Virus record (IMG/VR): IMGVR_UViG_3300025018_000456
Span: 1 to 28,486 of that record
Reading direction: 5' to 3' (one strand)
Source: a virus
Taxonomy: Duplodnaviria; Caudoviricetes
DNA: 28,486 nucleotides
Shown: positions 9,586 through 25,452 of the stretch, one piece after another
Layout: each line of letters begins with the position of its first letter
Position numbering within the stretch: position 1 is the stretch's first letter
Notes under the pieces: model-generated
Seen by the model: only the letters and a program-made list of their open reading frames with translations
Database searches by the model: none
Told to the model about the DNA's origin: nothing
Translations under genes and position numbers: made by a program

Positions 9586-9748
9586 GGCGATCTTCCTGCT
9601 GCGACCGCCGAATAACCCGGCCGCCTCGCCAACCGACCCAGCAAAGGTCATACGTCACGGAGCCTTTGACCGGGGTCATTCGTATGACCACAACCGGGCC
9701 AATGGACCACATGCGAACCGCGACCTGGATGTCGCCGGGGAAAATCAT
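9575..9748 (-). CDS. Hypothetical protein, 57 aa
   Basis: ATGA overlap at 9748/9745; fills the gap in the operon. Confidence 0.45.
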   Translation of the reverse strand: MIFPGDIQVAVRMWSIGPVVVIRMTPVKGSVTYDLCWVGWRGGRVIRRSQQEDRHET

Positions 9749-11238
9749 ACCGCGCTCCAAGTCCCGCCCGGCCGCAGCGCCGTGTGCCGCGTCCAGGTCC
9801 CCGCCACAAGCCAGCCGACCTCCCATTGCCCGTCTGGCCGTTCGTAGATGTAGGGCGCGGCGGCCGTGGCAGACGCCACCGACAGGTACGGGCCGGTCCA
9901 AGGGTCGCCGTCGCCGGCGCGTGTTAGCACCACGAACTGTTCGTTGCCGAAGTGGTAGCCGGCGACCGCCTGCCGCCCGTCGCGACCGCGCCAGAAGTTC
10001 GTTGCCACGAGGTTGCCGTACCCGGCGGTCCAGTCGGCGGTTGGCGACAGCGCCGACCAACTCTCGCCCAGCAGATCATCGGAGACGTACTCCGAGGGGA
10101 CATCGTTACAGAACCAGCCGACCCGCCACCGGCCGTCGGTGCCGCGGTACACCCATGGGTGCGGCCGGCTGTCCGTTTGCCCGGCCGTGCGAACCGCGGA
10201 GGCGACGGTGTAGCGGGCCTTGCGAACCGCCGACCCGCCGCCCGTGATCATGTCGCCCCACTCGCGGCCAGGCACGACGTAGACTCGCTCGACGTCATCG
10301 TGCTGCGAATACTTGACGGCCAGGGCCTGCCCGTCGTGGCGGTCATAGCAGACGCAAGATGGCATCAGCCGGTTGAAGTGCCGATAGGTCGGCGTTTCAT
10401 CGAACAGCCCTTCGGCCGACAGCGGCTCGCCGTAGCCAAACCAGAACTGCTTGACCAGTTCGCCGAACGGGTCGCTCACGACGGAGTAGCTGAACGCGCC
10501 GGTCACGGGGTTGACGCCGCGGATGCTTCCGAACAGCAGTCCGGCGCGCGGCGCCACGATGGGCATCACGCGGCGGGCAACGGTGTCGTCTACCTCCGAC
10601 AGGTATGACCACTCGGAGCCCGGACCCGGCCGGGTCCAGAGCTTGGACATGCCGGCATTGGCGGCCGGCGTCCGACCGCCGGGGCGCGTGATGAACTCGG
10701 TTCCGCTCGGCGTCGCCACCGGGTTGCCGCCGAGTGGCGGAAACAGGTTGAAGAGCTGCGTGAACCGGCCGGTATAGACCGGGCTGGCGACGTCGTGATC
10801 CCACCGTGATGCGACGATGCCCGAGACGGTGGCCGGCGTGGTCTTGCCGAACTGCCAGTTGACCACGCGCTCGGGGCGGCCGGCCGGGAAGATGACCGCC
10901 GGTGTCAGCCCGTTGTTGTAGCTGCCAGCCACGGTCCCTAGCAGGTTGCCGTCCGCGTAGAAGGTGTAGCTGGTCGCTGCGCCGACCGGCGAGTCGGCGT
11001 CGCAATCGATGCGGATCACGATGTCGCCGCCGGTGGTGTAGCTGGCCGTCGGGTCGGCGCCGTCGCCGATGTCGAAATCGTTGCCGCCGGGATTGTTGCC
11101 GGAGACAACCAGTCGGAGCGTATCGGTGTCGGAGACGTAGACGTTGGCGACGGTGTAGGCCGCGGTGGTGTAGATCCGCACGCCGAACCCGTCGCCGTTG
11201 GCACTGGACATCGTGGCTTGGACGCGCCAACCGTTCAT
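9745..11238 (-). CDS. Minor tail / tail-tip protein (beta-rich), 497 aa
   Basis: Position in the tail module; N-terminal lectin/LamG-like YTFYADGNLLGT; Trp/Gly-rich C-terminal half. Confidence 0.7.
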   Translation of the reverse strand: MNGWRVQATMSSANGDGFGVRIYTTAAYTVANVYVSDTDTLRLVVSGNNPGGNDFDIGDGADPTASYTTGGDIVIRIDCDADSPVGAATSYTFYADGNLLGTVAGSYNNGLTPAVIFPAGRPERVVNWQFGKTTPATVSGIVASRWDHDVASPVYTGRFTQLFNLFPPLGGNPVATPSGTEFITRPGGRTPAANAGMSKLWTRPGPGSEWSYLSEVDDTVARRVMPIVAPRAGLLFGSIRGVNPVTGAFSYSVVSDPFGELVKQFWFGYGEPLSAEGLFDETPTYRHFNRLMPSCVCYDRHDGQALAVKYSQHDDVERVYVVPGREWGDMITGGGSAVRKARYTVASAVRTAGQTDSRPHPWVYRGTDGRWRVGWFCNDVPSEYVSDDLLGESWSALSPTADWTAGYGNLVATNFWRGRDGRQAVAGYHFGNEQFVVLTRAGDGDPWTGPYLSVASATAAAPYIYERPDGQWEVGWLVAGTWTRHTALRPGGTWSAV

Positions 11239-11260
11239 CGCCGGACTCTCCCGCAGGCAA

Positions 11261-11290
11261 TGGACGGTAGGCTGGTTGGCAGGGTAGAGT
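11261..11290 (+). promoter_or_regulatory. Putative promoter TGGACG-N18-TAGAGT, 6 nt upstream of a leaderless ATG
   Basis: Same geometry as the 11950-11979 copy. Confidence 0.65.
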
Positions 11291-11296
11291 CGCGGG

Positions 11297-11476
11297 ATGA
11301 GCAGAGATAGGCAACCGAGGAAACCGCGCCCCGCTCCGCAAGGTCTGCCGCCACCACCGTTGCCGCCACTCGGTGACAGCCAGAAGGCTCCGAGGGAGTC
11401 GCTAGGCCATAGACAGGACGAACGCCAATCCCAACGCCCAGACGACGCATCCGACGAGCAGCAGCCAACCAGATAG
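11297..11476 (+). CDS. Pro-rich peptide B, 59 aa (PPLGD motif), leaderless
   Basis: Hand translation: MSRDRQPRKPRPAPQGLPPPPLPPLGDSQKAPRESLGHRQDERQSQRPDDASDEQQPTR; homologous to the 11986-12132 peptide. Confidence 0.65.
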   Translation: MSRDRQPRKPRPAPQGLPPPPLPPLGDSQKAPRESLGHRQDERQSQRPDDASDEQQPTR

Positions 11477-11896
11477 AACGACCTTCGGCTTGACCTTCGT
11501 GTTTCGTGACTGCTGTTCCGTGGCGCCGACGCTCAGTTGCTCGATGATCTGCCGCACCAACGGCTGTTCGGACGTTCCTGCTTCGGTCGCTCCTGTGACG
11601 TGCTGGAGGTAAGCGGCAGCCGTCGACGGCCGAACAATTTTCACAATGCTGGTGCCAAGCAGCGACATCGCAATCGCACCCGCGAAGATACCGGCTGCCA
11701 CTGCCAATAGCCACGATCCTGCGCCAACCGGCGGAGCAATGGTCGCCGATGCAATCAGCATCCCGAGCATCCCGAGCGCCATGTTTCCACGGGCCGAGAG
11801 CTTGGCCAACATCGAGTCTGCCGCAGCCTCTTCCCAGGCAAGGTTTTCGGACGCCATGTCCAGCAGCCGCCATTCGAGCGGCGTAGCATCTGCCAT
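11402..11896 (-). CDS. 3-TM membrane protein B, 164 aa
   Basis: AGGAG RBS; three hydrophobic segments; MADATPLEWRLLDMA is paralogous to 12121-12594. Confidence 0.85.
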   Translation of the reverse strand: MADATPLEWRLLDMASENLAWEEAAADSMLAKLSARGNMALGMLGMLIASATIAPPVGAGSWLLAVAAGIFAGAIAMSLLGTSIVKIVRPSTAAAYLQHVTGATEAGTSEQPLVRQIIEQLSVGATEQQSRNTKVKPKVVLSGWLLLVGCVVWALGLAFVLSMA

Positions 11897-11949
11897 AATC
11901 TGCTCCTGTCCCTATCATGCCAAAGCCCCCCGGACTCGCCAGCAAACGA

Positions 11950-11979
11950 TGGACTCCCGGTGTGCCGGCTTGGTAGAGT
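11950..11979 (+). promoter_or_regulatory. Putative promoter TGGACT-N18-TAGAGT, 6 nt upstream of a leaderless ATG
   Basis: Same geometry as the 11261-11290 copy. Confidence 0.65.
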
Positions 11980-11985
11980 CCCTGC

Positions 11986-12132
11986 ATGAGCGAGAAGCCA
12001 GAGCCGAAACCGACACCGGAACCGAAGTCGCCACGGAACAATCCCGCTCCAAAGCCGGAGCGTCCTCCGCTTGGTGATGACCGGCGGTCGCCGAAAGACG
12101 TTGGCACTCGCAACAAGGCGTTAAAGCGATAG
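11986..12132 (+). CDS. Pro-rich peptide A, 48 aa (PPLGD motif), leaderless
   Basis: Hand translation: MSEKPEPKPTPEPKSPRNNPAPKPERPPLGDDRRSPKDVGTRNKALKR; fills the gap between the two membrane genes. Confidence 0.7.
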   Translation: MSEKPEPKPTPEPKSPRNNPAPKPERPPLGDDRRSPKDVGTRNKALKR

Positions 12133-12594
12133 TCCTAGTGCTATCAGCCATGCTAGCAAGCCAACCGCAAGCAAAGCTTGAACAGCCAACAACGGCTTTT
12201 CGGCGTGGTGGTTTCGCGTTCCTTGGATAGCCGCCGCAGATTCCATGTCCTCGATTAGCTCGCGAACTGCTGTCTGCTGGGCAATGGACGCTCCGTAAAC
12301 CGCCCATTCCCCTGGCGTGCCTGCTCGCTTCATGTCGACTGGACGAGTTTCCGCCGCACCGATTATGATCGCAACCGCGAATGCCGATGCGGCTATCGCA
12401 ACAGCATATGATGCAGATGCCGCAGTTGGTGGCTGAATGGCAGTCGCAGCCAACAACAAGCCGAGCAACGTTAGACTGACGGAGGCGAGCGCCGAGGTCT
12501 TGGTTCGAATAGAATCCCCTGCGTCGCGAATCCAATCCAACCGCGCTTCTGCCATATCTAGCAGCCGCCATTCGAGTTGCGTTGCATCCTCCAT
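12121..12594 (-). CDS. 3-TM membrane protein A, 157 aa
   Basis: GGGAG RBS; three hydrophobic segments; MEDATQLEWRLLDMA; visibly lower GC than the flanking tail genes. Confidence 0.85.
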   Translation of the reverse strand: MEDATQLEWRLLDMAEARLDWIRDAGDSIRTKTSALASVSLTLLGLLLAATAIQPPTAASASYAVAIAASAFAVAIIIGAAETRPVDMKRAGTPGEWAVYGASIAQQTAVRELIEDMESAAAIQGTRNHHAEKPLLAVQALLAVGLLAWLIALGLSL

Positions 12595-12612
12595 GTTCGT
12601 CTCCCTGCCTAA

Positions 12613-12993
12613 TCATGCCACCCGCTCCCCGGACCGATGGCGAGCACGCTCTAACGCCTTGATAGCCTCCTGTTCCGCATGTTCCGCAGAAACAGTAGAA
12701 CCCGCGAAGATGTTGGCAAACGCCTTGTATTGTATTGGCGGGATATAGTCCTTGACGTTATCCTTGAGTCCCCAGTGGTCGATAGCTCCGGTCGCATAAT
12801 TGATCATGCAAACCCATCCCTTTCCGTTCGGCGGTTGTACCGGAGCATCACTACCGACAACCTCGTGCCGAACGATGTGCTGCGAAGAGATTTCAAGCCG
12901 CTGCGCGATGGCGACCGCGGCGGCCTCCGTCTCCGCTACGGCTACGATTTCGTCACCATGTCGCTCCGGGGACATCACAATCCAGACGTTCAT
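12613..12993 (-). CDS. Hypothetical inserted protein, 126 aa
   Basis: ATGA overlap; lower GC; flanked by 18-bp direct repeats. Confidence 0.75.
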   Translation of the reverse strand: MNVWIVMSPERHGDEIVAVAETEAAAVAIAQRLEISSQHIVRHEVVGSDAPVQPPNGKGWVCMINYATGAIDHWGLKDNVKDYIPPIQYKAFANIFAGSTVSAEHAEQEAIKALERARHRSGERVA

Positions 12994-13007
12994 GCCACCC
13001 GCTCCCC
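12613..13007. repeat. 18-bp exact direct repeat TCATGCCACCCGCTCCCC (12613-12630 and 12990-13007)
   Basis: Read directly; both genes therefore end GERVA-stop. Confidence 0.9.
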
Positions 13008-15161
13008 CTGGTACGTCGCCAGCCCGTCAGGCGCCATGTCCCCGCCGCCGGCGAACTGCACGCCTGTCAGGCGGTAGGTGAAACCGTAGTTCGCGCCGAC
13101 CAGCCCCACGAGTTGACCGGGGAACAGGTCAACCCGCTGCGACACCCAGGAGGCGTAGGTCTTCGGCCGGCGGTGGCGTTCGTAGAGTTGCCGGCAGACG
13201 TAGTTGACCATGCCCTGCGTCTGGAATGCCGGGTCGGTGACGACCATCGGCCACGGTTCCCCCACGTAGTTCGCCACACTGCTATCGCGGATGCTCGGCC
13301 AGTCGACGCAGCGCGCCATCAACGGCCGGCCGTCGGGCGCCTGCCCCAGCACGATGATCACGTTGTAGAGTTCGGAGTCGTCTAGCGTGGCGACGAAGCT
13401 GCCATCGCGGATGGTCCGGTAGGGGTAGCCGGCGGTCCTTGCGTCCTGATAGAAGTAGCCGTCCGCGGGTAGGCTGCGTTCGTAGAAGTAGGATCCAACG
13501 GCAGGTGTCCCGGAGGTCGTCACGGTCGCCAAGACGAACAGCCCGTCGCTCAGCCGGAAGTAGTGGATCAGGCTGGTCCCGTAGAACTTCCGCTGGAAGT
13601 CTTCGAGGATGCGGTCGAGGTTGGTGCCGGGCCGGTACACGAACGACGGCGCCTCGCCGACCGGGGTGTCGGCGAACCGCACCGGCCACGCGGCCAGCGA
13701 GTAGTCTGCCGCGGCCAGCCCGCCGGCTTCCAACACCTCGGCCAGACACTCGGTGAGCAGCCGCCCGTCGAAAGGCTTGCCGCCCGGCCAGAGCTGCTTG
13801 CGGAACCGGCGGAACAACCCCTCGGCCTGTAGTTCGAGTTCGCCCGACTGCGGGCTGCTGTCGGCGATGACCCGCCACCTGGCGTCCGAGGTCAGCCCGC
13901 GGAACCGGGTCACGGAGTCTACAACGTACCGTACCGTCATGTGCGGTTGCACGTAGTCTGCAAGGTCCTGCTTGAAGCAAATCAGGTTGGCCCGCAGCGC
14001 CTCGCGCGAGAGGTCGCCTTCGCGGGTTAGTTCGATGGTCCGGTCGGCGACGTTGCTGATGGCTAGCACGTCGGTGCCGGCGCCGCCCTCGGTTCGTAGC
14101 AGCCGAGGGACCTTCACGTCAACGGCGTCCAGGGCGAAGGTGTTGGCCGTGGTGCTAGTCCAGGAGACCGTCCAACCGAGCCCGTAGCGGCGAGAGGTGG
14201 TGCCAGTGCCAACCACCCATGTCGAGCCGCCTTCGTCGACGCAGGTGATGGTCGCCGCGACGGGTCCGTTGCTCGCGCCGTGAACCGTGGCGGCCTCCAG
14301 TTCCAAGCTTGACCCGCCGGGGTCAAGCGCCGTGGGGTTCATCGTCACGGAGGCGGCCCCGGCGACCCACGCCTGATTGCTCACGTTGACCGTGGCGAAC
14401 CCTCCGCCGGAGACCTTCCACTTGGCGGCCCGGATGGCGTTGCGAACCTTCTCGCCCTCGCCGTCCAGTGTCTCGCCGGCCAGCGCGCCGTCATCACGGT
14501 ACACGAACCCGGCCCGGCGACCTTCTAGCGATTGGTTGACGTTGGCGATGATGAGCTTGGCTTGCACCTGCCGGATCCAGAGTTGATGAATGGTGCCGCG
14601 GTAGGTGTCGGCGACCATCCATTCAAACTGCCCGCGGGCGGTCTCCGAGGTGACGCCGGTGTCGGTGTCCAGGCTCTGCTCGTAGAGGATGGCGTTGCCG
14701 TTGTCGTGTAGCTCCAACTTCCACACGCCGCCGAACTCGACGGTCAACGGCGAGTCGGTGCCGACCCCACCTTCCGCGGCCTCGGTTTCGTAGGTGATGA
14801 AGGTCAGCCACCGGCCCTGCCCGGCCGCGGCCGCGGTCACGTCTTCCAACGCCCAGTCGGCGTCTGCCTTCTGCGCGAGGAAGGTCACGAGGGAGCCGTC
14901 CGCCTTGAAGCCCGGCTGCGTTTCGACCCACGTGCCGGTCTGCGTCCAGGAGGCGGAGACCATGCTGGTAAGGTCATAGTTCGGAAGCCCGGTGAAGTGG
15001 CCGGCGACCTCGGAGAAGCCGACCCCCGACGTGGATAGCAGCCCCTGCTTGATGAGGTCGCGGATGGTGTCCAGACTGCCCGGCGTGAAGTCGAGGAACA
15101 CTGCGCCGCCCGGTTCATCGATGACGGTTCGCGGTTCCTGTAGCCAGAGGTTGACGCTCAC
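12990..15161 (-). CDS. Tail-tip / baseplate hub-like protein, 723 aa
   Basis: Directly follows the tape measure; C-terminal half has hub-like features (RFRGL, LYNVIIVLG, LFPGQLV). Confidence 0.7.
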   Translation of the reverse strand: MSVNLWLQEPRTVIDEPGGAVFLDFTPGSLDTIRDLIKQGLLSTSGVGFSEVAGHFTGLPNYDLTSMVSASWTQTGTWVETQPGFKADGSLVTFLAQKADADWALEDVTAAAAGQGRWLTFITYETEAAEGGVGTDSPLTVEFGGVWKLELHDNGNAILYEQSLDTDTGVTSETARGQFEWMVADTYRGTIHQLWIRQVQAKLIIANVNQSLEGRRAGFVYRDDGALAGETLDGEGEKVRNAIRAAKWKVSGGGFATVNVSNQAWVAGAASVTMNPTALDPGGSSLELEAATVHGASNGPVAATITCVDEGGSTWVVGTGTTSRRYGLGWTVSWTSTTANTFALDAVDVKVPRLLRTEGGAGTDVLAISNVADRTIELTREGDLSREALRANLICFKQDLADYVQPHMTVRYVVDSVTRFRGLTSDARWRVIADSSPQSGELELQAEGLFRRFRKQLWPGGKPFDGRLLTECLAEVLEAGGLAAADYSLAAWPVRFADTPVGEAPSFVYRPGTNLDRILEDFQRKFYGTSLIHYFRLSDGLFVLATVTTSGTPAVGSYFYERSLPADGYFYQDARTAGYPYRTIRDGSFVATLDDSELYNVIIVLGQAPDGRPLMARCVDWPSIRDSSVANYVGEPWPMVVTDPAFQTQGMVNYVCRQLYERHRRPKTYASWVSQRVDLFPGQLVGLVGANYGFTYRLTGVQFAGGGDMAPDGLATYQGERVA

Positions 15162-17887
15162 ACCGCCCCCTCAACCGCGCCGAGTTGATCCTGCGCCGAC
15201 CGTGTAGCCCGGCCGATGCCCTCGCGGATCGCCTGCACCACCACGCGGGTGAACGGCATCATGGCCGAAGATGTCGCGTCCGCGATGATGCGCCCCTGCT
15301 GGTTGAGGCGGGCCTGGGCCAAGATCGCTTCGTCGCCGATCCCGAAGTTGCCGAGGGCGGTCCCGACGAGCGAGTCGGTGTAACTGGCGTGGCGCGGGTC
15401 CTGCTGGCCGCCCTGCATCTGGACGGATATGCTACGCGGGTCGCGGGCCGCGGCCTCGCCATGCAGACGGGACACCGCGCCACCGAACGGCGCGGGTAGG
15501 GTCATCACACCAGAGTCGGACATCCCGACACCGAGTTGCGCCAGGCGGTCTTCAATCTGGCCGAGTGCCTCGCGACTCCCGGCCACGGCGCCTGACGCCG
15601 CCCCGCCGGCGATCATTTCCGCGATGCTTCGGCGGAGCTCGCCACGTTCGCCCGCCAACCCGATGATTTCTGTCAGCATGGCGTCGGTGGACTTGCCGAA
15701 CGCCTGAGTCAGCCCCTCCAACCGGCGAGCCGTGAAATCCAGCCACTGCGCCGTGAGGTCCATCTGCCGTTGCATCCCGGTCTCAACCGCCGAGGCATAC
15801 TGGTCGAACCCGGCGGTCAACCCCTCCAACCGCAACTGCTCCTGCCGGGCGGCCTCGCGGTGCCGGTCGGCCATGGTCTTGATCTGGTCGGCGATTTTCG
15901 GGTTGGCGTCTGCCTCGCGCTCCAAGGCATCGGCTCGCGCCTCGTTCACGCGGATGGATTCCTGCAACGCCTTGACGTTCGGAAGGGCCTTGCCGAGTTC
16001 GTCCAGGAACAGCTGGCGGAGCCGGGCGGCCCCGGCCTCCGGCGAACCGGCCGGCGGGAGTTGCCCTGCCCGGCGTCGGGCGGCGGCCATGGCGGAGCCG
16101 GCGGCGGCACGCCCCTGCGCGGTTCCAGTGCGGCGCCCGGCGGCGGTGAGCCGGTCGTCAAGCGCCATGCCAGCCTGCGCCTCGGCGTACGCCTGCGCGC
16201 GGCTGGCCGCGATGAGCCCGGCCATGATGGCCTTCTGCTTTTCGAGCAGCTTGAGATAATCCTGCCGGGCGGTCGTGGCTTGCTTGACGGCGGCGGCCTC
16301 GGCGTCGATGGCATCCTTGTGGGCCTTGGTCCCCGCCGTGGCGGCTTGCACCTGCCGCTGCTCAGCTTCCAACACGGCCACACGGTTGCGGTGGTTATCC
16401 TCGGCGTCACGGAGGTTGGCGTTGAGACGGTCCAGGGCCTGCGCCCACTGCGAGGTCTGACCCGCGGCAGAGCGCGTGGCGTCCGCGGTGCCACGGGAGG
16501 AGCGGCCCGCATCGTCGACGGCCTCGGCCGCGCCGCTGGCAGCCTTGTCCGCCTCATTGAATGCCTTGGCCGCGTCACCGACGTTGCCACGCAGATAATC
16601 CCACACCGAGCCGGCGGTACGCTTCACTCCGCCGGCGGCGCCCCCGGCGATCTTGCCGACCGCGCCACCGACCGACGTCGGGTTGGCCAGCGGTACCGCC
16701 CGGCCGCCGCGCTTTCCGCCCACGCCTTGCAGACGGTCCAGCAGGTCAATCAGCGGCTGCAGCCGGGTCAGCGCGTCGTCAACCAGCCGGTCAAGCTCCT
16801 GCAGCGCCACAACGCGAAGCTCGGCGAACCCGGCCCGTGCGAGGTCCGGCAGGGCGTACATCGTGATGGTGAACTGGTCACGCCAGAGCTGGAACGTCGA
16901 CTTCGCCCGACCGATGGCGGTGCCGAACATCGCGAACACGCGCTTGATGGTCGCCCCCCATGCCTCAATGTTCTCGACCGTGAAGGTCCGCTTGATCCAG
17001 TCGGCGATACCCGGCAGCCAGGCGGCCACGGTCTGCCCCAGCTTCGCGAACACCGGGACGAGCCCGGTCACGGCGGCGGTGATGTCGCGGAGCCCCTGCG
17101 CCCCCTCATCAGTGGCGAACGCCGCACCGAACGCCGCGGCCACGTCGCGGAACGCAGCTTTCAGGTTGGTGATGGAGTTCGCGAAGGAGTCGGCCGCCCG
17201 TGGTAGCGCGCCGAACCCCTTGACGATGAGCCCGATGAACTGCTCGGCCGACACCCCTGCCGCCGCGAATTCCTTCTGAAGTTTCTCGGTGTCCGCTGTG
17301 CCGAACACGTCGGTCATCACGGCGCGGATCTGCGGCACCGCCTCGGCGAGCTGGTTGATTTCCTCGGCGGAGACCTTGCCCTTGGACACAATCTGCGACA
17401 GCGCCACGCCGACCCGCTGCAACTCCGCCTCGCCACGGCCGGCCAGCGCGAGCGCGTTGCCGAACTGCTCGATCGCATCGATCGCCACGTCCGCTTCGAT
17501 GCGGACGGCGATGAGACTGGTTGCCAACTGCGCGCCGGAGTCAAAGGTCACGCCAGGCTTGAGCGCCACGGCCTGCAACCGCTTCATCGCCCGGCTGGCC
17601 GCCTCCGCGGAACCGAGCATGGACTTGAGCCCGAGTTCCACCGACTGCCGCTGAGCCGCGACGCTGATGCCCCACGCGCCGAACGCCACGGCGGCCACGC
17701 CCGCGGCCTTGGCGATGTTTTTGAGCGCCGCGACTGAGGTCGCACCCATGCGGGTCATCGCCGCCCCGGCCATGTGTGCACCGGCTGAGATAGCGCGTTG
17801 CCCGGCCATGATGCCGGCGTATGCCCGCGTCACCTGCGCCGTGCCGGTGACCTTGAAGGCTACGACCTGTTCTTCTCGGCCTCTCAC
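15158..17887 (-). CDS. Tape measure protein, about 909 aa
   Basis: GTG at 17887 in a GTGA overlap; Ala-rich helical; ALSQIVSKGKVSAEEINQLAE tape-measure domain motif. Confidence 0.92.
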   Translation of the reverse strand: MRGREEQVVAFKVTGTAQVTRAYAGIMAGQRAISAGAHMAGAAMTRMGATSVAALKNIAKAAGVAAVAFGAWGISVAAQRQSVELGLKSMLGSAEAASRAMKRLQAVALKPGVTFDSGAQLATSLIAVRIEADVAIDAIEQFGNALALAGRGEAELQRVGVALSQIVSKGKVSAEEINQLAEAVPQIRAVMTDVFGTADTEKLQKEFAAAGVSAEQFIGLIVKGFGALPRAADSFANSITNLKAAFRDVAAAFGAAFATDEGAQGLRDITAAVTGLVPVFAKLGQTVAAWLPGIADWIKRTFTVENIEAWGATIKRVFAMFGTAIGRAKSTFQLWRDQFTITMYALPDLARAGFAELRVVALQELDRLVDDALTRLQPLIDLLDRLQGVGGKRGGRAVPLANPTSVGGAVGKIAGGAAGGVKRTAGSVWDYLRGNVGDAAKAFNEADKAASGAAEAVDDAGRSSRGTADATRSAAGQTSQWAQALDRLNANLRDAEDNHRNRVAVLEAEQRQVQAATAGTKAHKDAIDAEAAAVKQATTARQDYLKLLEKQKAIMAGLIAASRAQAYAEAQAGMALDDRLTAAGRRTGTAQGRAAAGSAMAAARRRAGQLPPAGSPEAGAARLRQLFLDELGKALPNVKALQESIRVNEARADALEREADANPKIADQIKTMADRHREAARQEQLRLEGLTAGFDQYASAVETGMQRQMDLTAQWLDFTARRLEGLTQAFGKSTDAMLTEIIGLAGERGELRRSIAEMIAGGAASGAVAGSREALGQIEDRLAQLGVGMSDSGVMTLPAPFGGAVSRLHGEAAARDPRSISVQMQGGQQDPRHASYTDSLVGTALGNFGIGDEAILAQARLNQQGRIIADATSSAMMPFTRVVVQAIREGIGRATRSAQDQLGAVEGAV

Positions 17888-18093
17888 GGCTTCGCCTCTT
17901 TCGGCGTCAAGACCTGCTGATGTGCCGCCCAATCGGCGACGGCGACGCTTACGTCAAGCGGGCTAACCATCATCTCCGACGGCAGACGGTGCAACTTCTC
18001 GACTATCCACCACGTCCGCGCCGCTTCGTCCTCCTGCGTCATCGAGTGCGGGTGGTGCCACGGCGCGAAACCGCACACCGGCGGTCCGGCCAC
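17884..18093 (-). CDS. Tail assembly chaperone extension (lambda gpT-like), probably made by frameshift
   Basis: Overlaps the chaperone 3' end in the +1 frame; EKLHRLPSEM resembles gpT-type motifs; its stop overlaps the tape measure start. Confidence 0.55.
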   Translation of the reverse strand: MAGPPVCGFAPWHHPHSMTQEDEAARTWWIVEKLHRLPSEMMVSPLDVSVAVADWAAHQQVLTPKEAKP

Positions 18094-18841
18094 CTCCCGC
18101 GAGGTTGGTGGCTTCGACGAACATCCGGCGCGCCGTGCCGTACGGCAGGAGCTTGACCTGCTCGCGCGTCAGGAGTGGCGGCCCGCCCGGCCCGGCGGTC
18201 ACGCAGCCGGCCAGCAGGTGCGACATCACGGCGATCTGATTGACCGGGCCGAGGGTCCGGCAGGCCATGCTCGCGGCCGACCGAGCAGCCTCCGTGTAGG
18301 GCCTGACGTAGACTTCCAGGCCGGCACAGTCCGCCCGGAGGTCGCCAACCCACCGCCCACGCCACTTTACCGCCTCGCGCCACGCCCGCGGGTCGGAACC
18401 GTCCGGCTCGGTGACCGCCGCGTCGCTATAGCCGCTGGCCTGTAGCACGGCCATGAGCAGCGCGAGCCCTGGCGTCACGTCGACGGCGCCGTCGGTCATC
18501 AGCAGGGAAATGTCGCCAACTTCCTCCGGCGAGTCGAATACGGGTATCATCCGCGCGAGGTTCGCCGGCTCCGGCTCGGCCGCCCCGTCGGTTAGCAGCC
18601 ACGCATCCGGGTCGATATGCAAACTGGCCGCCACGATTGCCCGGTCGCCGTCGGTGTCGTCAAAGTCGGCGCCGAGATTGATTGCCGCCCCGTTGTGGCA
18701 GGCGATGGCAGCATCGACGGTAAGCGGTTTCAACCAGCAGACCGCCGAGGGTGGCGCGTCGGGAAGTAATCCAACGCACCACCCCCAGCCGGCCGCCGGG
18801 CGCGTCAGAGGTTCGGCCTGTTCCCGTGCCGTGATCCTCAT
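17963..18841 (-). CDS. Tail assembly chaperone (lambda gpG-like), 292 aa
   Basis: Between tail tube and tape measure; TGATG overlap at 18841. Confidence 0.7.
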   Translation of the reverse strand: MRITAREQAEPLTRPAAGWGWCVGLLPDAPPSAVCWLKPLTVDAAIACHNGAAINLGADFDDTDGDRAIVAASLHIDPDAWLLTDGAAEPEPANLARMIPVFDSPEEVGDISLLMTDGAVDVTPGLALLMAVLQASGYSDAAVTEPDGSDPRAWREAVKWRGRWVGDLRADCAGLEVYVRPYTEAARSAASMACRTLGPVNQIAVMSHLLAGCVTAGPGGPPLLTREQVKLLPYGTARRMFVEATNLAGGGRTAGVRFRAVAPPALDDAGGRSGADVVDSREVAPSAVGDDG

Positions 18842-19239
18842 CAGTACGTGATTCCACTGGCCTGCGACGGGATCTCGCTGAATTGAAACGTCAGCTGCCA
18901 TGTCAGCACGTCGTCAGGCTGCGTGCTCGGCACGGCGGCGATGAGTTTGCCGTTGGCCGACAGGATCGTCGTGCTGTCCCGCATCCAGTAGCCGATCATG
19001 GTAGTTCCGAGCAGGGCCAGGATCGCGTCATCGGTAGAAATGATAGTCGCTTCCAACCCGGCTTCGTCCGCCATGCCGGAGACTTGCGATAGCCCGGCCG
19101 CGTCACCGGACCCGCGGATGTTGAACAGCCTCGGCGTGGTGTTGACCGTCATCCCGCTTCCATCGCGGAGCTTGTAGAGCACGGAGCCGAGTTTCAGCTT
19201 GTCCTTGGCCCCGGTGGTGTAGGTTGCAGTGTCAGACAT
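18841..19239 (-). CDS. Tail tube (major tail) protein, 132 aa
   Basis: GAGGAGG RBS, ATG at 19239; position; C-terminal DDVLTWQLTFQFS beta-strand pattern. Confidence 0.7.
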   Translation of the reverse strand: MSDTATYTTGAKDKLKLGSVLYKLRDGSGMTVNTTPRLFNIRGSGDAAGLSQVSGMADEAGLEATIISTDDAILALLGTTMIGYWMRDSTTILSANGKLIAAVPSTQPDDVLTWQLTFQFSEIPSQASGITY

Positions 19240-19250
19240 GGTTGGCCTCC

Positions 19251-19724
19251 TCAGGCTGTCCCGGCGATATCGGCATGGTGCCGAACCTCGAAATCCAGCG
19301 TCAGTAGCAGGGCCGGAAGTCCGGCCTGGGTATTGAACGGTTCGCCTTGCGGGTCGGAGCGCGTCCAACGCGCGAGCGGGTAACTGGCCGACAGGGCGGT
19401 CTCACACGCGGCCCGCACCACGTCGACGTACGCCTCGGCGGTCGTCATCATGTCGGTCGTGGTGTCGTCTGCCACCGCGATGAACACCTGCAACGCCACG
19501 GCGATGCCCATTGCCGGCGAGGTGTGATAGTCGGTGGCTTCCACGCCCGTCACGTCGACGGCCATCGCCGGCAGGCTGTCGTAGTGCAACAGCAGTCTCG
19601 AACTGTTGAGAATGCCGGAGGCGGCAGAAATGGTCGCCAACCCCGCGGTTGTGAGCGCCAAGTTGATGGCGGTCAACGTCGCCGGGGCGGTGAGCTTGCC
19701 CTTGATGGTCGCAACCTGCCCCAT
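19251..19724 (-). CDS. Tail terminator / completion protein
   Basis: Size (157 aa), position before the tail tube, LPA.AV motif. Confidence 0.6.
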   Translation of the reverse strand: MGQVATIKGKLTAPATLTAINLALTTAGLATISAASGILNSSRLLLHYDSLPAMAVDVTGVEATDYHTSPAMGIAVALQVFIAVADDTTTDMMTTAEAYVDVVRAACETALSASYPLARWTRSDPQGEPFNTQAGLPALLLTLDFEVRHHADIAGTA

Positions 19725-20431
19725 CAGATCCTCCCCCCGGCGATGTCGGCCAGCTCGCGCATCAGCACCGGCAGAGCGTCGTCGATCGCCGGGTAAAGCC
19801 TGTTGTATGGCTTCGTGCCGTGTTTAGCGATAGCGCGTTGAACCGCGTGGGCAATCTCCAACTCCCGCCCGGTGTGCGAGAAGCTGGCGATCTTGCCGCC
19901 CCGCATCCGCTCGAACCGGTCTTCGATCTGCAGCCTGATTTCGGCCGCGGCCTGTCGCTTGCGCCCAGCCTTCGTCTGCCCGTCGGCAATGCGCCGGGCC
20001 ATTCCGAGCGACATTTTGAGCGCGGCGCCCGTGGCGTCCGACGGTCGGCCGCGATGCGTTGATGCACCGTCCGCGAGGTGCTTCGCCTGGACCCACCGCA
20101 GCAGACCGCCGCCCTCCGGTGTGGTGATTGGCACCATGTGCGGTGGGGTGCCGAACTCGACTTCGGACCAGTAGTCTGCCAGCCCGACCCCGCCGATCAT
20201 CGCGGAGGCGGTCTGCTTGACGTACGGCTGCGGCGACCGCAACAGGTTGCCAGTCGCGTCGTTTTTCCCTTTGCTGGCCAAAGGCGAGTGCATCCAGTTG
20301 AACTGCGCGTTCGGCTTGACACCGCCCTTGTCAACCAACGCCGTGAGCATGGCAGCCCGCAGCGCCCGCGGCAGCCGGTCGGCCTGCCGGGCGATGTGCC
20401 CGTTGCTTCGCCAGTCCATCCGGGAGGTCAT
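19724..20431 (-). CDS. HK97 gp10-like neck/tail-completion protein
   Basis: TGNL.RS, Y...VEFGT.PH and HGTKP...L.PA motifs, with a basic insertion. Confidence 0.75.
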   Translation of the reverse strand: MTSRMDWRSNGHIARQADRLPRALRAAMLTALVDKGGVKPNAQFNWMHSPLASKGKNDATGNLLRSPQPYVKQTASAMIGGVGLADYWSEVEFGTPPHMVPITTPEGGGLLRWVQAKHLADGASTHRGRPSDATGAALKMSLGMARRIADGQTKAGRKRQAAAEIRLQIEDRFERMRGGKIASFSHTGRELEIAHAVQRAIAKHGTKPYNRLYPAIDDALPVLMRELADIAGGRI

Positions 20432-21075
20432 AGCGTCAACCTCCGATACGGGTCAAGCATCAACCGGATGCGACTGGGCATCGCAGACTCGCGGATCGCC
20501 ATCCCGGTCCCGGCGATCTGGACGGACTCGGCCGATGGCACGGGCGAGTGCCACAGGAGCGAGCAGAGCTGCAGGCAGGCGTTCTCCAGGTCATCGAGCG
20601 CCCGGCGGTGAAGCCGGCCCAACACCGTCGCCAGGGCCGCGGTCGTGGCGTCATACCCGGCCCGCGCAACCACGGCGATGGTTTGTACGCCTGGCGTCGT
20701 GCTGTAGCCATGCAGGTTGATGACCCCGATCGCGGCGTTCATCGTGTAGCCGGTGCCGTAGATGCTTGTGCGGGCCGCGATGACCTCGGAGGTTGCCGAG
20801 TCGGTGACGCTGGTAACGGCCACAATCGGCCATGCGCCCTCGCGGTACAACGGGATCATCGTCCCGCCGTCGCCGTCCAGGGTGTAGGTATAGGCCGCGG
20901 CCGGAGCGATGAGCATCCGGTCGCAGTACGCTTCGATATGGCTTGAAACGCGGTTGATGAGCGCCTCGCACCGGGCCGTGGCGTAGCGACCATCGGTGGC
21001 CGTGGCGATGGTGTCCTGTGCCAGCCATGCCTGCAGGTTGGCGACGGTCGTCAAAGCGTTGGCGTTCAAGGCCAT
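20428..21075 (-). CDS. Head-tail adaptor (HK97 gp6/SPP1 gp15-like)
   Basis: LTTVA.L..WL, LI...S..IE.YCDR, PI..VTSV, AGY, DLE.ACL.L, MP......LDPYRR. Confidence 0.85.
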   Translation of the reverse strand: MALNANALTTVANLQAWLAQDTIATATDGRYATARCEALINRVSSHIEAYCDRMLIAPAAAYTYTLDGDGGTMIPLYREGAWPIVAVTSVTDSATSEVIAARTSIYGTGYTMNAAIGVINLHGYSTTPGVQTIAVVARAGYDATTAALATVLGRLHRRALDDLENACLQLCSLLWHSPVPSAESVQIAGTGMAIRESAMPSRIRLMLDPYRRLTL

Positions 21076-21701
21076 CAGTCGAGCCTCACGATGTCTGCCA
21101 GATGCCCGTAGACACTCACGTAATCGGACCAACAGCCGTCATACGTTAGCGCGTAGTCTCGCCATGCCTCGCGGACACCCCACGGGATTGCCTCGTCGCC
21201 CCGGTCGCCCCAGTCGTGTAGCGCGCAACAGCCCTGCGCCACGACGCGGCCAGCGTAAAGTTCAAGGTCGGCCCGAACATCCGCCTCGTGATGGTTGGCG
21301 TCCAGGTACAACAGGCTGGTCTTGGACGGCGCCTGCTTCGCCGCATCGGCCCCGGTTGCCCCAATGAGGGTAATCCGGTCGGCGATGCCGAGGACTTCCC
21401 ACGCATCGCGGGCCACCTGCGCCATGTCGCGGCCGTCGGCGATGGCGAGCTGCGTCGGGTTGTATAGCTCCGGGTCGTGCGGGTCAATCGTCACCACCGC
21501 CCGGCCAGCGGCGGCCATCACGGCGGCGGAATAGCCGGCCCAGCATCCGAGTTCGATGACCGGCAGACTGGAATCGGTTCCGCCCGCCAGGTCATAGAGC
21601 CGCCATGCCTCGCCGCACCAATGGGGCACCTGCAGCCGGCCAAGGCGGTGTACGATGTCGGCCAGCGGGATGGGCTCGAACGTCCGCTTGCGCTTCGCCA
21701 T
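21075..21701 (-). CDS. Class I SAM-dependent methyltransferase (Methyltransf_24-like)
   Basis: VIELGCWAGYSA, TIDPH, LLYLDANH, D......V..GG-like..HD motifs. Confidence 0.88.
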   Translation of the reverse strand: MAKRKRTFEPIPLADIVHRLGRLQVPHWCGEAWRLYDLAGGTDSSLPVIELGCWAGYSAAVMAAAGRAVVTIDPHDPELYNPTQLAIADGRDMAQVARDAWEVLGIADRITLIGATGADAAKQAPSKTSLLYLDANHHEADVRADLELYAGRVVAQGCCALHDWGDRGDEAIPWGVREAWRDYALTYDGCWSDYVSVYGHLADIVRLD

Positions 21702-22798
21702 CACGCCACCTCTCGGACAAGCTGGACCGCCCGCGGCCACGTCGCCTGCAAGGTCAGCAGAATCTCAGGGGACACCAGCGCCTCGGCGCCAGGCGCGATG
21801 CTGAGCCCGTAGCTTGGAACTTCCATCGGCGCGTCGCCGGTGTTGCGAACCGCCACCGCCGCGGCCGGGTCCTGTTCGTCGGTCACGAACACGACTTTGA
21901 GGCTACGATCCGGCCCCTCGTCATACCGCCAGAAGCTGCCGTCGCTTTGGTAGTGACGGCAGCGGACCCGCCCGTCTTGGATCGGCGGGCATCCGGTCGC
22001 CAGTTCGAGCCGGCGGAACCACCACACGTCCTCGCCGAGGATGCCAATGTTCGGATTGCCGACCAACTCCCACAACAACGTCCGATCCTCGCGGTACTTC
22101 GTGTACTCCGCCCAGCCAAGGTCTGCCAGCACCGTCCGCCGCATCAGCGAACAGCCGAACCCGGCGATCTGTGTGTACCCGATGCGCCCGGCTTTGAGCG
22201 GAATGTAGCGGTTCGAGCCGTCGGTCATCTGGCCTGACTCGCCGGGGTCACGATCCATCATCTGCGAGATCGGCGCGCCGTGCATCCGCGTAGCGTAAAC
22301 ACCTACCGCCACCTGCGGTGCGAACGGGCCGATCGTCTCGGTGAGCACCTGCCGCAGGCAGACCCACGCATGAGCGCGCGGGTCGATATCGCTGTCCAAC
22401 CAGAGCACCCAGTCGACCTCAGGCTCCAAGCTGAGCACGCCGAGCCGGGTCGCCTCGCGGAGAATGGCGACCTTGTGCAGGTAGACGATGTTCGCCGGAC
22501 CGCCGGTGTGAGGGTTTGCGTCGAACGTGGCCAGCCCGCGAACGATGGATGAGATTTCCGCCGCGGTGTTCGAGCCCGTCTTGAGCGCCGACGGGATGAA
22601 CGGCAGAAGCTGGATGCCCGACCGCTTGGCCGCCGCGCGCGCAGCGTCCATCAACTCAGCGTCCGCGTCATAGCAGCAGGCCACGATGACCGGCTCAGCG
22701 CCGGCCCAGTCGATCCCGGCCCATCGTTCGATCATCGTCGGGATGATCGCCCGTTTGCCGTTGTCCAGCATGGTCGCAATCGCTACACGCTCGGTCAT
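21701..22798 (-). CDS. GT-A fold (GT2-like) glycosyltransferase
   Basis: WVLWLDSDI (DxD), AGFGCSLMRR.VL, GEDVWW.RR, DGRVRCRH motifs. Confidence 0.85.
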   Translation of the reverse strand: MTERVAIATMLDNGKRAIIPTMIERWAGIDWAGAEPVIVACCYDADAELMDAARAAAKRSGIQLLPFIPSALKTGSNTAAEISSIVRGLATFDANPHTGGPANIVYLHKVAILREATRLGVLSLEPEVDWVLWLDSDIDPRAHAWVCLRQVLTETIGPFAPQVAVGVYATRMHGAPISQMMDRDPGESGQMTDGSNRYIPLKAGRIGYTQIAGFGCSLMRRTVLADLGWAEYTKYREDRTLLWELVGNPNIGILGEDVWWFRRLELATGCPPIQDGRVRCRHYQSDGSFWRYDEGPDRSLKVVFVTDEQDPAAAVAVRNTGDAPMEVPSYGLSIAPGAEALVSPEILLTLQATWPRAVQLVREVA

Positions 22799-22956
22799 TT
22801 GGTTCTTGTCCCCTTCGCCGGCTTGGTGTGGTAGCTACGCCGCTCAGCGGGCAGGCGGGCAACCGTCACCTGCGACCCCGACTCAAGCGCCCGGACGATG
22901 CCCTCGGGCAGGTCCACTTGAGCCGACTCGTCGCCGCAGGTGACGATCACGCGCAT
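22795..22956 (-). CDS. Small head-associated hypothetical protein, 53 aa
   Basis: GGAGG RBS, ATG at 22956; ATGA overlap with the glycosyltransferase gene. Confidence 0.6.
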   Translation of the reverse strand: MRVIVTCGDESAQVDLPEGIVRALESGSQVTVARLPAERRSYHTKPAKGTRTK

Positions 22957-22961
22957 GGTCG

Positions 22962-23228
22962 TTAGCCCTCCGCGGCAGACACATCCAGCCACCGCAGGAT
23001 GATTAGCTTGTCCACGGTGGTCCCTTCGATCTTGATGTTCCCCGCGGAGTCGATGGTCGTCGTAGCAGTACGATCCTCGGTGAGCACGCCACTGGCCGTG
23101 ACGGCCTGGCACTCGATGATCACGTCATCGACGGCCAGGCCGCTAATCGCGATGCTGGTCGCACTCGCCGCACCGGCCGCCGTGGTTACCTTCCACATCG
23201 CCGGGTTGAAGTTGCCGAAGGTCGGCAT
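22962..23228 (-). CDS. Probable capsid decoration / head-associated protein, 88 aa
   Basis: Immediately after the major capsid gene; AAAGGA RBS; Thr/Ala/Ile-rich beta character. Confidence 0.6.
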   Translation of the reverse strand: MPTFGNFNPAMWKVTTAAGAASATSIAISGLAVDDVIIECQAVTASGVLTEDRTATTTIDSAGNIKIEGTTVDKLIILRWLDVSAAEG

Positions 23229-23249
23229 GATGCATTATCCTTTCTCGCC

Positions 23250-24605
23250 TCAGATGGCGACCTTGATGCCCACCGCAACGGCGCGGTCGGTCGTGGTTCC
23301 CTGCGTGATCCAGGGCTTGAAGTCACCGCGCCAGCTCCCCACGACCCGGTACTGAAGCGATTCGGGATCGTAGACCGTGACGATGCTGGCTGCCCGCTGC
23401 GTCGCCAACACGAACGCCCGACGGTTCGCCATGACAGCGACCGACACCGTGCCGGCCTGCGTCTCGTAGCCGGTCGTGTGGTTGGTGTCGGAAACGTAGG
23501 CCGAGACGACGATGGGGATGCCCATCACCGCGCCAACCTCGCCGGTCAGGTTCAGCGCCCTGGGGCCGATCTTGTCGATGCTGCTGTAGTTCGGCCAGAG
23601 CGAGGTCGCCTTGGTGGCGTTGACCAGCAGCTTGGTGTAGGCCGCGTTGCTGATGATGAGCACCAGGTCCTCAGCGTTGCCGTACCCGGCCGACAGCTTG
23701 GACCGAATCATCGCCACGTCAACCTCTTCCCACGCCGCGGTCCCGATGGAGGTCTCGGCGGTATCGAAGGTCGTGGCGGTCGCGACGCTGGCCAGCTTGC
23801 GAAGGCCGTCCCACGCTCGCCGGCAGTCGTTGGCCGTGGTTACCACGGACGAGTCCTGATGCGTGGCCGTGGTGTCGCCGTTGAGGATCGCCGTCTCCTG
23901 CCCGTTGACGAGCGACTTGGCGATGGCCCGGCGAACGTAGTCCTCCGCGGCGATGATGCTGTCCTCGTCGAACTCCAGGCTGAACGGCACCCGGATGCCC
24001 ATCGTCTTGCCGGTGAAGGTGACGTTTCTCGTCGACGGGGTGCGGGTCGGGATGAGCGCCGCGGTGTCGTTGACGTTCTCGCTCATCAGGTACGGCAGGC
24101 CAAGGTTGCCCTCAACCGGCCAGAGCCACGGCGACCGCGGGATCGTCACCTGGTCGAACAGGGTCGGCACCCGGCGAAGCAGCGCGATTTCCGCGCGGAG
24201 CTGGTCGGAGTAACCGGTCGGCACGTACTCCGCGCCGGTGGCCGTGCCGCTGGTGCTGAGCGCCTTGGCGGCCTTCTGAAGTTCCTGCCAGCCCTTGCAC
24301 TCCCGCGGATCCTTGCGGAGCAGCGCCGAGACCATGTACACACGGTCGGCGGCCTTCTGGAACCGCAGCTCGGCTTCGTCGCGGGGAACCCGACCATGAA
24401 TGTCGTCGTAGTCGACGACTTCCGGCTCGAACTCCAGCGGCTTGCCGGCCTTGTTGACGGCGGCGAGGTCCAACGGGCCGACGGGCGGCTCTCTGTCCGC
24501 CTGCTGCTTGGCGACCGCCGCGGCGACCGCCGCTTCGATCTTGTCGTTCATGCCCTCGGTCACGCCCTTGATCTGGGCGAGGATCTGGGCAAGTTCATCA
24601 GCCAT
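23250..24605 (-). CDS. Major capsid protein, HK97 fold with N-terminal delta/scaffold domain
   Basis: ATG at 24605 after GGAGG; G..YVP.......I, S.E..EDS, E.AILNGD, G.PIVVS motifs. Confidence 0.93.
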   Translation of the reverse strand: MADELAQILAQIKGVTEGMNDKIEAAVAAAVAKQQADREPPVGPLDLAAVNKAGKPLEFEPEVVDYDDIHGRVPRDEAELRFQKAADRVYMVSALLRKDPRECKGWQELQKAAKALSTSGTATGAEYVPTGYSDQLRAEIALLRRVPTLFDQVTIPRSPWLWPVEGNLGLPYLMSENVNDTAALIPTRTPSTRNVTFTGKTMGIRVPFSLEFDEDSIIAAEDYVRRAIAKSLVNGQETAILNGDTTATHQDSSVVTTANDCRRAWDGLRKLASVATATTFDTAETSIGTAAWEEVDVAMIRSKLSAGYGNAEDLVLIISNAAYTKLLVNATKATSLWPNYSSIDKIGPRALNLTGEVGAVMGIPIVVSAYVSDTNHTTGYETQAGTVSVAVMANRRAFVLATQRAASIVTVYDPESLQYRVVGSWRGDFKPWITQGTTTDRAVAVGIKVAI

Positions 24606-25452
24606 GATGTCTGCCTCCGATGTAACGCTGACGCTCGGTCTTGAGCGCCGATGCAACGCGGCTCGGCACGGAGTCGGCGAGGGATCGCAACTCCGCAACG
24701 GCCTCGGTCAGCACCGCCCAATCAGGCTGCTCGGATGGGTCTCCGGGCGCCGGATGGGTCTCCGGGATCGGTGGCGGCGAAAGTTGTTCGATGAGGGCCT
24801 TGGCCTTGGCTACCTCGCAGGGGGGAACAGGGCAGCCAAGGCCAAGCTTGCGATAGTGGGCGGTGATGTTGACCAGCGCCTGCGCCGCGCCGGTCAATCT
24901 CCGGATGTCACAGGCAATGCGGGCCGACTCGATCGCGTCCTTGTCATCGGGAAAGAAGTGCTTCAGCAGTACGCCGGCGAAGTCGGACCCCGCATCGGCG
25001 GCCTTGACCAGCGCGTCCGCGTTGGACGGGATGGTGACGCCGCTGTATTCCTGAATGTCCCATGCGTAGATGGTCGGCCCGCGCTGGCCGTCCATGACCG
25101 GTTCCTGCGTGGCGTCGGTGACCTTGAAGCCGACCGAGAATGCCTTGAGGAACCCGCCCCGGTAGAGCTGCCACATTTCGTCACCGAGTGCGGTCGGCGC
25201 GAACTCCGTAGTAGCCTCGACCCCCTCGCCCGGAATAGCGCGGATGTCCACCGCCTTGCCGATGGGCGGCGTCTTGCGGTCGTGCATCCAGAGCACCACG
25301 GGGTTGCGAAGGAAGTCGGCGAAGGTCGCGCCATCGGCTTTTAGAACCTCAGAGTCCCGGTCGACCGTCTCGCGACTAACCCACGCATCAACAGCGCGGT
25401 GACCTTCATCGATGCTCTTTACGGCGTCCGGCAGGCTGGCGAACTTCATCAT
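24598..25452 (-). CDS. HK97-family prohead protease
   Basis: VDRD.EV, NPVVLW.HD...PIGK, LKAFSVGF, EYS.V.IPSN.DA. Confidence 0.93.
   Translation of the reverse strand: MMKFASLPDAVKSIDEGHRAVDAWVSRETVDRDSEVLKADGATFADFLRNPVVLWMHDRKTPPIGKAVDIRAIPGEGVEATTEFAPTALGDEMWQLYRGGFLKAFSVGFKVTDATQEPVMDGQRGPTIYAWDIQEYSGVTIPSNADALVKAADAGSDFAGVLLKHFFPDDKDAIESARIACDIRRLTGAAQALVNITAHYRKLGLGCPVPPCEVAKAKALIEQLSPPPIPETHPAPGDPSEQPDWAVLTEAVAELRSLADSVPSRVASALKTERQRYIGGRHHG

Follow-up and report, generated by a model that had tools for sequence, protein, structure and literature searches.

Stacked low-GC cassettes in a phage tail operon may pair remote PycTM-like membrane proteins with convergent leaderless peptides

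Type I toxin-antitoxin systems combine a small single-helix toxin with a non-coding antitoxin, many of these loci being convergent with overlapping 3′ ends, and type II systems are co-transcribed two-gene operons in which a small protein antitoxin binds the toxin. Phage morons are genes of foreign composition that carry their own promoter and terminator inside a conserved operon. In Pycsar and Pucsar the effector has three transmembrane (TM) helices (PycTM and PucTM; PF18967, pJV1-SpdB3), and PucTM is reported to form a hexameric channel and to give a phenotype like abortive infection (bioRxiv 10.64898/2026.08.12.744502). The locus presented here shares features with each of these. It lies in the IMG/VR virus record IMGVR_UViG_3300025018_000456, the whole 28,486-nucleotide stretch of which, hereafter the window, is a 28.5-kb fragment of an uncultured tailed phage (Duplodnaviria; Caudoviricetes; ~30% complete by CheckV). 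Between two probable tail genes on the minus strand stand two paralogous genes for three-TM proteins, TM-A and TM-B, each met at its 3′ end by a convergent plus-strand gene for a short peptide with a PPLGD motif. Our preferred reading, to which we give a probability of about 0.5, is that these are acquired cassettes in a stacked moron array, in which a PycTM-like pore is restrained by a peptide and late ribosomes cross each cassette on an open bridging frame.

TM-A (157 residues; 12121..12594, minus strand; GGAG ribosome-binding site 6 nt before the ATG) and TM-B (164 residues; 11402..11896, minus strand) are identical at 63 of 162 residues (39%, E 5e-23) and share an exact 17-nt DNA match (12560-12576 and 11862-11878), confirming the paralogy proposed in the first-pass annotation of this DNA, whose coordinates and translations for the TM genes and peptide open reading frames (ORFs) were all correct on recomputation. 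Hydropathy and two structural models (mean pLDDT 67 and 74) indicate that an extended N-terminal helix continues as TM1 and is followed by TM2, by a helical loop and by a second long helix whose end forms TM3. This is the helix layout of the Pycsar and Pucsar effectors. The likeness extends to remote sequence homology, with both proteins mapping to PycTM-containing ESM Atlas clusters (scores 0.93-0.94, PF18967 being carried by only 12-33% of the members of those clusters), and with a five-sequence family profile finding as its best match in 301 Actinomycetota genomes a full-length PF18967 PycTM (E 8.6e-6 for that genome), which sits in an operon of class III cyclase, SEC-C protein and PycTM. 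Alignment by hhalign against 22 fetched PycTM proteins gives a probability of 74-79%, compared with 2% for the reversed profile. An early hunch of a Pycsar/SLATT-type effector is thus borne out on the Pycsar side, as remote homology, and not on the SLATT side, where SLATT_3 scores against TM-A were below threshold (9.2 bits for a cut-off of 26.3, and 9.9 for one of 45; E 1.8 and 0.69).

Close relatives are few, with three TM homologs at E 0.001 among 1.84 billion representatives; a search with TM-A alone returned none, TM-B returned one non-self homolog, and the five-sequence profile added no further homologs. Of the three (P0002, P0003 and P0004), P0002, from a 54-kb contig, is 78% identical to TM-B, and P0003 (NUP99236.1) comes from a metagenome-assembled genome of Armatimonadota, which offers no more than a hint of the host. 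Pfam, PHROGs, NCBIfam and PADLOC (five family members for PADLOC) gave no named family for the TM proteins, and fold searches gave no match at E<=0.001 in PDB or BFVD, with VIA returning generic helical bundles only. On their sequences the TM proteins are a remote branch of the pJV1-SpdB3/PycTM family and not members of Pycsar, because they score under the Pfam cut-off, do not have the PR and YFG motifs, and are not accompanied by a cyclase in the window, where none was found among the 39 ORFs scanned, direct neighbours included, in this partial record. Their partner is instead a convergent peptide gene. The homology suggests a pore, though not necessarily a toxic one. At L102:100-2013 (genome G559) PycTM shares an operon with a class III cyclase and a SEC-C-motif protein, the latter E2-like as judged by eye, and L070 has a near-identical layout.

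Peptide A (48 residues; 11986..12132, plus strand) overlaps the 3′ end of TM-A by 12 nt, and the last 75 nt of the gene for peptide B (59 residues; 11297..11476, plus strand) are antisense to TM-B. Both peptides carry a Pro/basic tract followed by PPLGD, which the six-frame translation of the window contains at two sites only, 12064 and 11363. That the motif is kept despite codon change, as had been noticed at the outset, is correct, with 4 nt differing between the copies and all of them at third positions. The motif belongs to a 17-codon core in which 8 of 17 residues are identical and the mismatches number 6, 7 and 11 at the first, second and third codon positions, the shared pattern reaching as far as P-x-x-P-P-L-G-D-x4-P-[KR]-[DE]; outside the 17 codons the peptides are poorly conserved. 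Shuffled peptides of the same compositions share a 5-mer with P=0.02, and one minus-strand mirror frame has the same third-position pattern, whilst it is only in the plus frame that both copies have an ATG at the place set by the conserved promoter. Because the 5-mer alone has P=0.02, we base the case for the peptides on motif, position and promoter jointly.

The convergent ORFs with overlapping 3′ ends resemble type I toxin-antitoxin loci, however the putative toxin is 157-164 residues long with three TM helices, and a conserved ORF is present in the antisense unit. That the partner is a small and probably disordered protein is reminiscent of type II systems, but the gene for this partner lies on the opposite strand and is convergent rather than co-transcribed upstream. 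Should type I logic apply, the plus-strand transcript would act mainly as a cis-antisense RNA against the TM mRNA, with the peptide ORF mostly serving to stabilise or translate that RNA; the overlaps of 12 and 75 nt, together with the lack of an intrinsic terminator in 11000-13200, mean that the transcripts could overlap widely, and the poor conservation of the peptides beyond the core is in keeping with such a role. This explanation is nevertheless unlikely, since the retention of PPLGD through four synonymous changes suggests selection on the protein sequence, protein binding is weakly predicted, and the only Rfam match in the region is at chance level.

The first-pass description of the peptides as leaderless is supported by the position of a -10 box, which in each copy precedes the ATG by 6 nt. 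The predicted promoter of peptide A (11930..11988, plus strand) comprises an 8-nt block (11930-11937), a -35-like TGGACT (11950-11955) and a -10 TAGAGT (11974-11979), with the ATG 6 nt on, and that of peptide B (11241..11299, plus strand) comprises an 8-nt block (11241-11248), TGGACG (11261-11266) and TAGAGT (11285-11290), again with the ATG 6 nt on, giving a shared layout of TGGAC-N19-TAGAGT-N6-ATG. Aligned with each other, the 62 noncoding bases that precede the two ATGs need no gaps and contain identical blocks of 8, 6 and 9 nt. A TANNNT box 6-7 nt upstream is found at six of the 722 ATGs in the window, two of which are the starts of peptides A and B. Searching GTDB with the promoter motif gave 28 matches, with a Pfam-recognised gene behind 10 of them, including all five in Actinomycetota (four TetR). 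TetR genes are often leaderless. None of the 28 has a relative of the TM genes nearby, and 29 matches to the promoter pattern in viral contigs included no peptide gene. Plus-strand TANNNT-N6/7-ATG sites also occur at 2078 and 4826, antisense to the MT-A70 and RecT genes, and may mark leaderless small genes.

Structure prediction of TM-A with peptide A gives an ipSAE of 0.49, versus 0.00 for the best of three controls, a result rated as weak support; the runs agree in at least 95% of contacts, with a partner pLDDT of 58-60, and TM-A reaches a pLDDT of 90 with peptide A compared with 66-72 with unrelated partners. Among 157 solved complexes 116 attained the ipSAE mark used, compared with 2 of 215 mismatches, and passing scores of 0.60 or less were obtained for only 18 of the 157 solved complexes, plus both passing mismatches. 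The models therefore lend weak support to binding of TM-A by peptide A. Were such binding to activate, the peptide would be a gating ligand that replaces the cyclic nucleotide, its promoter firing under stress or infection. PycTM and PucTM are themselves switched on by a ligand from a partner gene, the peptide is the only partner found here, no cyclase having been located, and the predicted binding appears to order the TM fold. Against this, a promoter of housekeeping appearance would make an activator lethal unless it were further controlled, and no operator or sensor was identified, leaving a role as activator quite improbable.

It is established that neighbouring genes can be coupled through termination and reinitiation where their ends overlap as ATGA (Huber et al. 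2019, PMC6728339). At this locus four consecutive minus-strand ATGA stop/start overlaps (12990, 12613, 11915 and 11235) link the upstream 723-residue tail gene to a gene termed ORF126, then to a 233-codon ORF, a 227-codon ORF and the downstream 497-residue tail gene. The two intermediate ORFs, here called bridges, are free of stops: bridge A (11915..12616, minus strand) lies in the -1 frame of TM-A and shares ATGA overlaps with the stop of ORF126 and with bridge B, and bridge B (11235..11918, minus strand), in the -1 frame of TM-B, runs up to the ATGA that it shares with the start of the 497-residue gene. Each spans its module exactly, covering the TM gene, the antisense peptide gene and the peptide promoter. 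The four successive overlaps match the described coupling, but two of the links here are off-frame ORFs of ~230 codons rather than genes in their own right, each superimposed on a complete gene, on an antisense gene and on two promoters.

The openness of the bridges is unusual for the genes that they cross. In 5000 synonymous codon permutations the frame stays open with P=0.011 for bridge A and 0.036 for bridge B, and none of the 32 at-risk codons (those in which a final T would create a stop) ends in T, compared with 52 of 215 comparable codons (Fisher p=2.9e-4). Such avoidance is absent from 16 core genes (124/1070 versus 431/4337) and from ORF126 (5/22), and none of 20 other minus-strand genes is stop-free in that frame. 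Of 54 degenerate residues that are identical in the paralogs, 32 have a different third base, which makes the two bridges largely independent cases and not simply inherited identity. Their products match over 22 residues only (E 0.002), whilst the TM frames are 39% identical throughout, and have no NCBIfam match; with no conservation beyond the 22 residues, they are unlikely to be functional proteins.

It could be argued that the 233- and 227-codon frames are either functional proteins or pure chance, with the peptides as by-products of a duplicated GC-rich spacer. Public gene callers did pick the 233-residue frame over TM-A, and long off-frame ORFs are common at the 66% GC of this genome. The restricted match between the bridge products speaks against such an origin, as do a variant at 12021 that is silent in peptide A and alters the bridge product (a single site), a second variant that alters both the bridge product and TM-A, and the specificity of stop avoidance to the two TM genes, and we regard it as very improbable.

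The ATG of each bridge is 22 nt before the TM start, within a TGGCATGAT box that precedes both TM genes (12612..12620 before TM-A and 11914..11922 before TM-B, minus strand). This element is a candidate extended -10 of a TM promoter, and a transcript starting from it would lack the bridge ATG, because the box contains that ATG. At the far end of the array, a predicted minus-strand hairpin (11209-11278) pairs the start of the 497-residue gene with the complement of the -35 box of peptide B, but is not significant (z -1.6; 16 of 200 shuffles fold equally well).

The block 11235-12993 consists of three units, ORF126 and modules A and B, each TM module being ~690 nt long. It looks acquired, since its GC content (0.57-0.62) is lower than that of its surroundings (about 0.66-0.70) and its GC at third codon positions (GC3; 0.54-0.71) is much lower than in four core genes (0.85-0.89). 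The first-pass proposal of a two-component accessory module in the tail operon is supported by this GC3 contrast, the conserved promoters and the weakly predicted binding; the promoters themselves, the stop-free bridges, ORF126 and the repeat that encloses it go beyond that proposal. ORF126 (126 residues; 12613..12993, minus strand), the third cassette of low GC3, lies between exact 18-nt direct repeats (12613-12630 and 12990-13007) that copy the end of the upstream tail gene, such that its C-terminus, GERVA, is the same five residues that end the 723-residue protein. Its first 7 nt equal the first 7 nt of the downstream tail gene, and bases related to the repeat reappear at the other two junctions. 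From these boundaries we infer that the cassettes were stacked at one site via recombination at short boundary sequences. ORF126 cannot be placed in any Pfam, PHROG or NCBIfam family on meaningful scores and forms a one-member cluster.

Genes of foreign composition with promoter-like boxes of their own, stacked at one site between short repeated junctions, are features shared with morons and with the cassette shuffling at T4-type PeSL elements (PMC2839356). In contrast to those elements, no terminator was found here and the junction is a tail-gene end with an ATGA overlap rather than a promoter and stem-loop. No usable relatives came from searches with the flanking tail genes and the portal gene, and no related phage with an empty site was found. 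Both flanking genes are probable tail genes without a family match, the upstream one (12990..15161, minus strand) standing directly after the tape-measure gene and the downstream one (9745..11238, minus strand) before the tail-fibre gene. The block is not an assembly chimera, because a single Logan contig (run X1, from an aquifer, which may be the source of this DNA) spans 10217-13409 with 2 letters differing, and two ~200-nt pieces from a groundwater run of a separate study (X2) match exactly within the cassette. No RNA run was listed among those containing this stretch.

In the mechanism that we favour, that of peptide-restrained pores in acquired cassettes, the TM protein would oligomerise to a PucTM-like membrane channel that is toxic when free. 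The peptide, made constantly from its leaderless transcript, would bind the cytosolic helices of its own TM protein via the PPLGD core, and convergent transcription may add some antisense damping. An incoming phage that stops host expression or removes the peptide would allow the channel to open, the cell to abort and the carrier population to be protected. In the lytic growth of the phage itself, ribosomes on the late mRNA would leave ORF126, reinitiate at ATGA, cross bridges A and B and reinitiate on the tail gene, a passage that would avoid polarity in the tail operon. Translation of a bridge likely blocks translation of the TM gene at this stage, because the bridge starts 22 nt before it, whilst a transcript from the TGGCATGAT box would begin at the TM ribosome-binding site, such that synthesis of the TM protein would be switched on in the carrier and off once lytic growth begins.

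An effector held off by a constant inhibitor, whose loss triggers defence, is also the logic proposed for Panoptes (OptS/OptE) and Hailong (PMC13712596). The inhibitor in those systems is an enzyme-made nucleotide or DNA oligomer, however, whereas here it would be a ribosomally made peptide, and the effector family differs. The fullest form of our proposal, a guard system in which a PycTM-type pore is kept under a ribosomally made PPLGD peptide, with two specificities and a triple-coded cassette in which selection keeps a junk-protein frame open so that late ribosomes both silence the pore and reach the tail gene, is possible but doubtful. The parts belong to known kinds, namely a three-TM effector, toxin-antitoxin logic and ATGA coupling, and no description of the TM/peptide pairing was found in the literature searched, with most subscription journals and supplementary tables lying outside that search.

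Several observations weigh against the preferred mechanism, beginning with the homology itself. A reciprocal hidden Markov model built from the 22 PycTM proteins does not separate the TM proteins from reversed controls, PF18967 has no match at E<=10 in any of the five family members or in the window, and the PR and YFG motifs of the fetched proteins are replaced, an invariant RN pair preceding TM3. The bridges were noticed post hoc, and with the codon usage of core genes the chance of an open frame is about 0.2 per module, ~3% of 230-codon core-gene windows being stop-free in that frame. ORFs of at least 150 codons lie behind 11 of the 28 GTDB promoter matches compared with 39 of 164 background sites, a modest enrichment. 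A temperate lifestyle is an assumption, because neither an integrase nor a clear repressor was seen in the 39 scanned ORFs of a record that is ~30% complete.

Small membrane morons often act in exclusion, and the TM proteins may accordingly be non-toxic membrane factors, serving superinfection exclusion or as SpdB3-like helpers, with the peptide as an accessory subunit. The family member SpdB3 is needed for plasmid spreading and self-interacts (PMC4447253), so toxicity does not follow from homology to PycTM, and the absence of the PycTM-specific motifs is in line with a different function. A separately promoted peptide on the opposite strand and a likely block of TM translation on the late mRNA fit a restrained protein better, however, and we consider non-toxic factors rather unlikely.

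The main weakness lies in generality: no related locus with DNA shows a TM gene together with a peptide, and conservation of the pairing rests on the two paralogs. A comparable peptide is missing from the 31 true PycTM loci fetched from 251 genomes each of Actinomycetota and Pseudomonadota (L077 and part of L076 excepted), and from a weaker TM look-alike, L105 (G461). Scans for related loci drew a blank in viral contigs, recovered no locus but the window itself from metagenomes and, for P0003, had no match in GTDB; by tblastn, neither TM-B in phages nor P0003 in plasmids had a real match. Scans with the family profile in samples of Chloroflexota (251, then 301 genomes), Planctomycetota (201), Acidobacteriota (201) and Pseudomonadota (201) returned only false positives, including TadB-like proteins and one short, weak look-alike, and no member with a visible peptide partner was found in any phylum sample, that of Actinomycetota included. 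Of the eight matches to the back-translated peptide motif, one of those shown lies in a 369-residue ORF, and none of those shown falls in a short ORF that has a start codon. Perhaps the pairing is limited to a lineage that is poorly sampled. The short look-alike just mentioned (L132:125-661, G1237) stands at a contig end, with a 50-residue, charged, low-complexity, co-directional ORF upstream that is unlike the peptides described here and is possibly another type of small partner.

If the peptide does restrain the pore, the consequences would reach beyond this phage. Many PycTM-like genes have no adjacent cyclase, and a peptide partner missed by annotation would explain in concrete terms how they are controlled; such a partner could also point to the ligand site of the whole PycTM family. 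The bridges, if real, would show how a foreign and possibly toxic cassette can be tolerated in a tightly coupled late operon without polarity. Gene callers can choose a bridge frame and drop the real gene, as occurred with TM-A in public data.

The remainder of the window has a conventional layout, with the minus-strand order terminase, portal, protease, capsid, connector, tape-measure, tail-fibre and amidase, followed by RecT and an MT-A70 methylase, although the phage is highly divergent, with a portal less than 30% identical to those of the best listed cultured phages. The portal is fused with a Mu gpF-like head morphogenesis domain (25449-27590, minus strand). Between the capsid and head-tail adaptor genes lie a Methyltransf_24 methyltransferase gene and a weakly glycosyltransferase-like gene (21075-22798, minus strand), possibly involved in virion glycan modification. 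The late operon is densely coupled over 15158-25494 (minus strand), with several ATGA, GTGA and TGATG overlaps.

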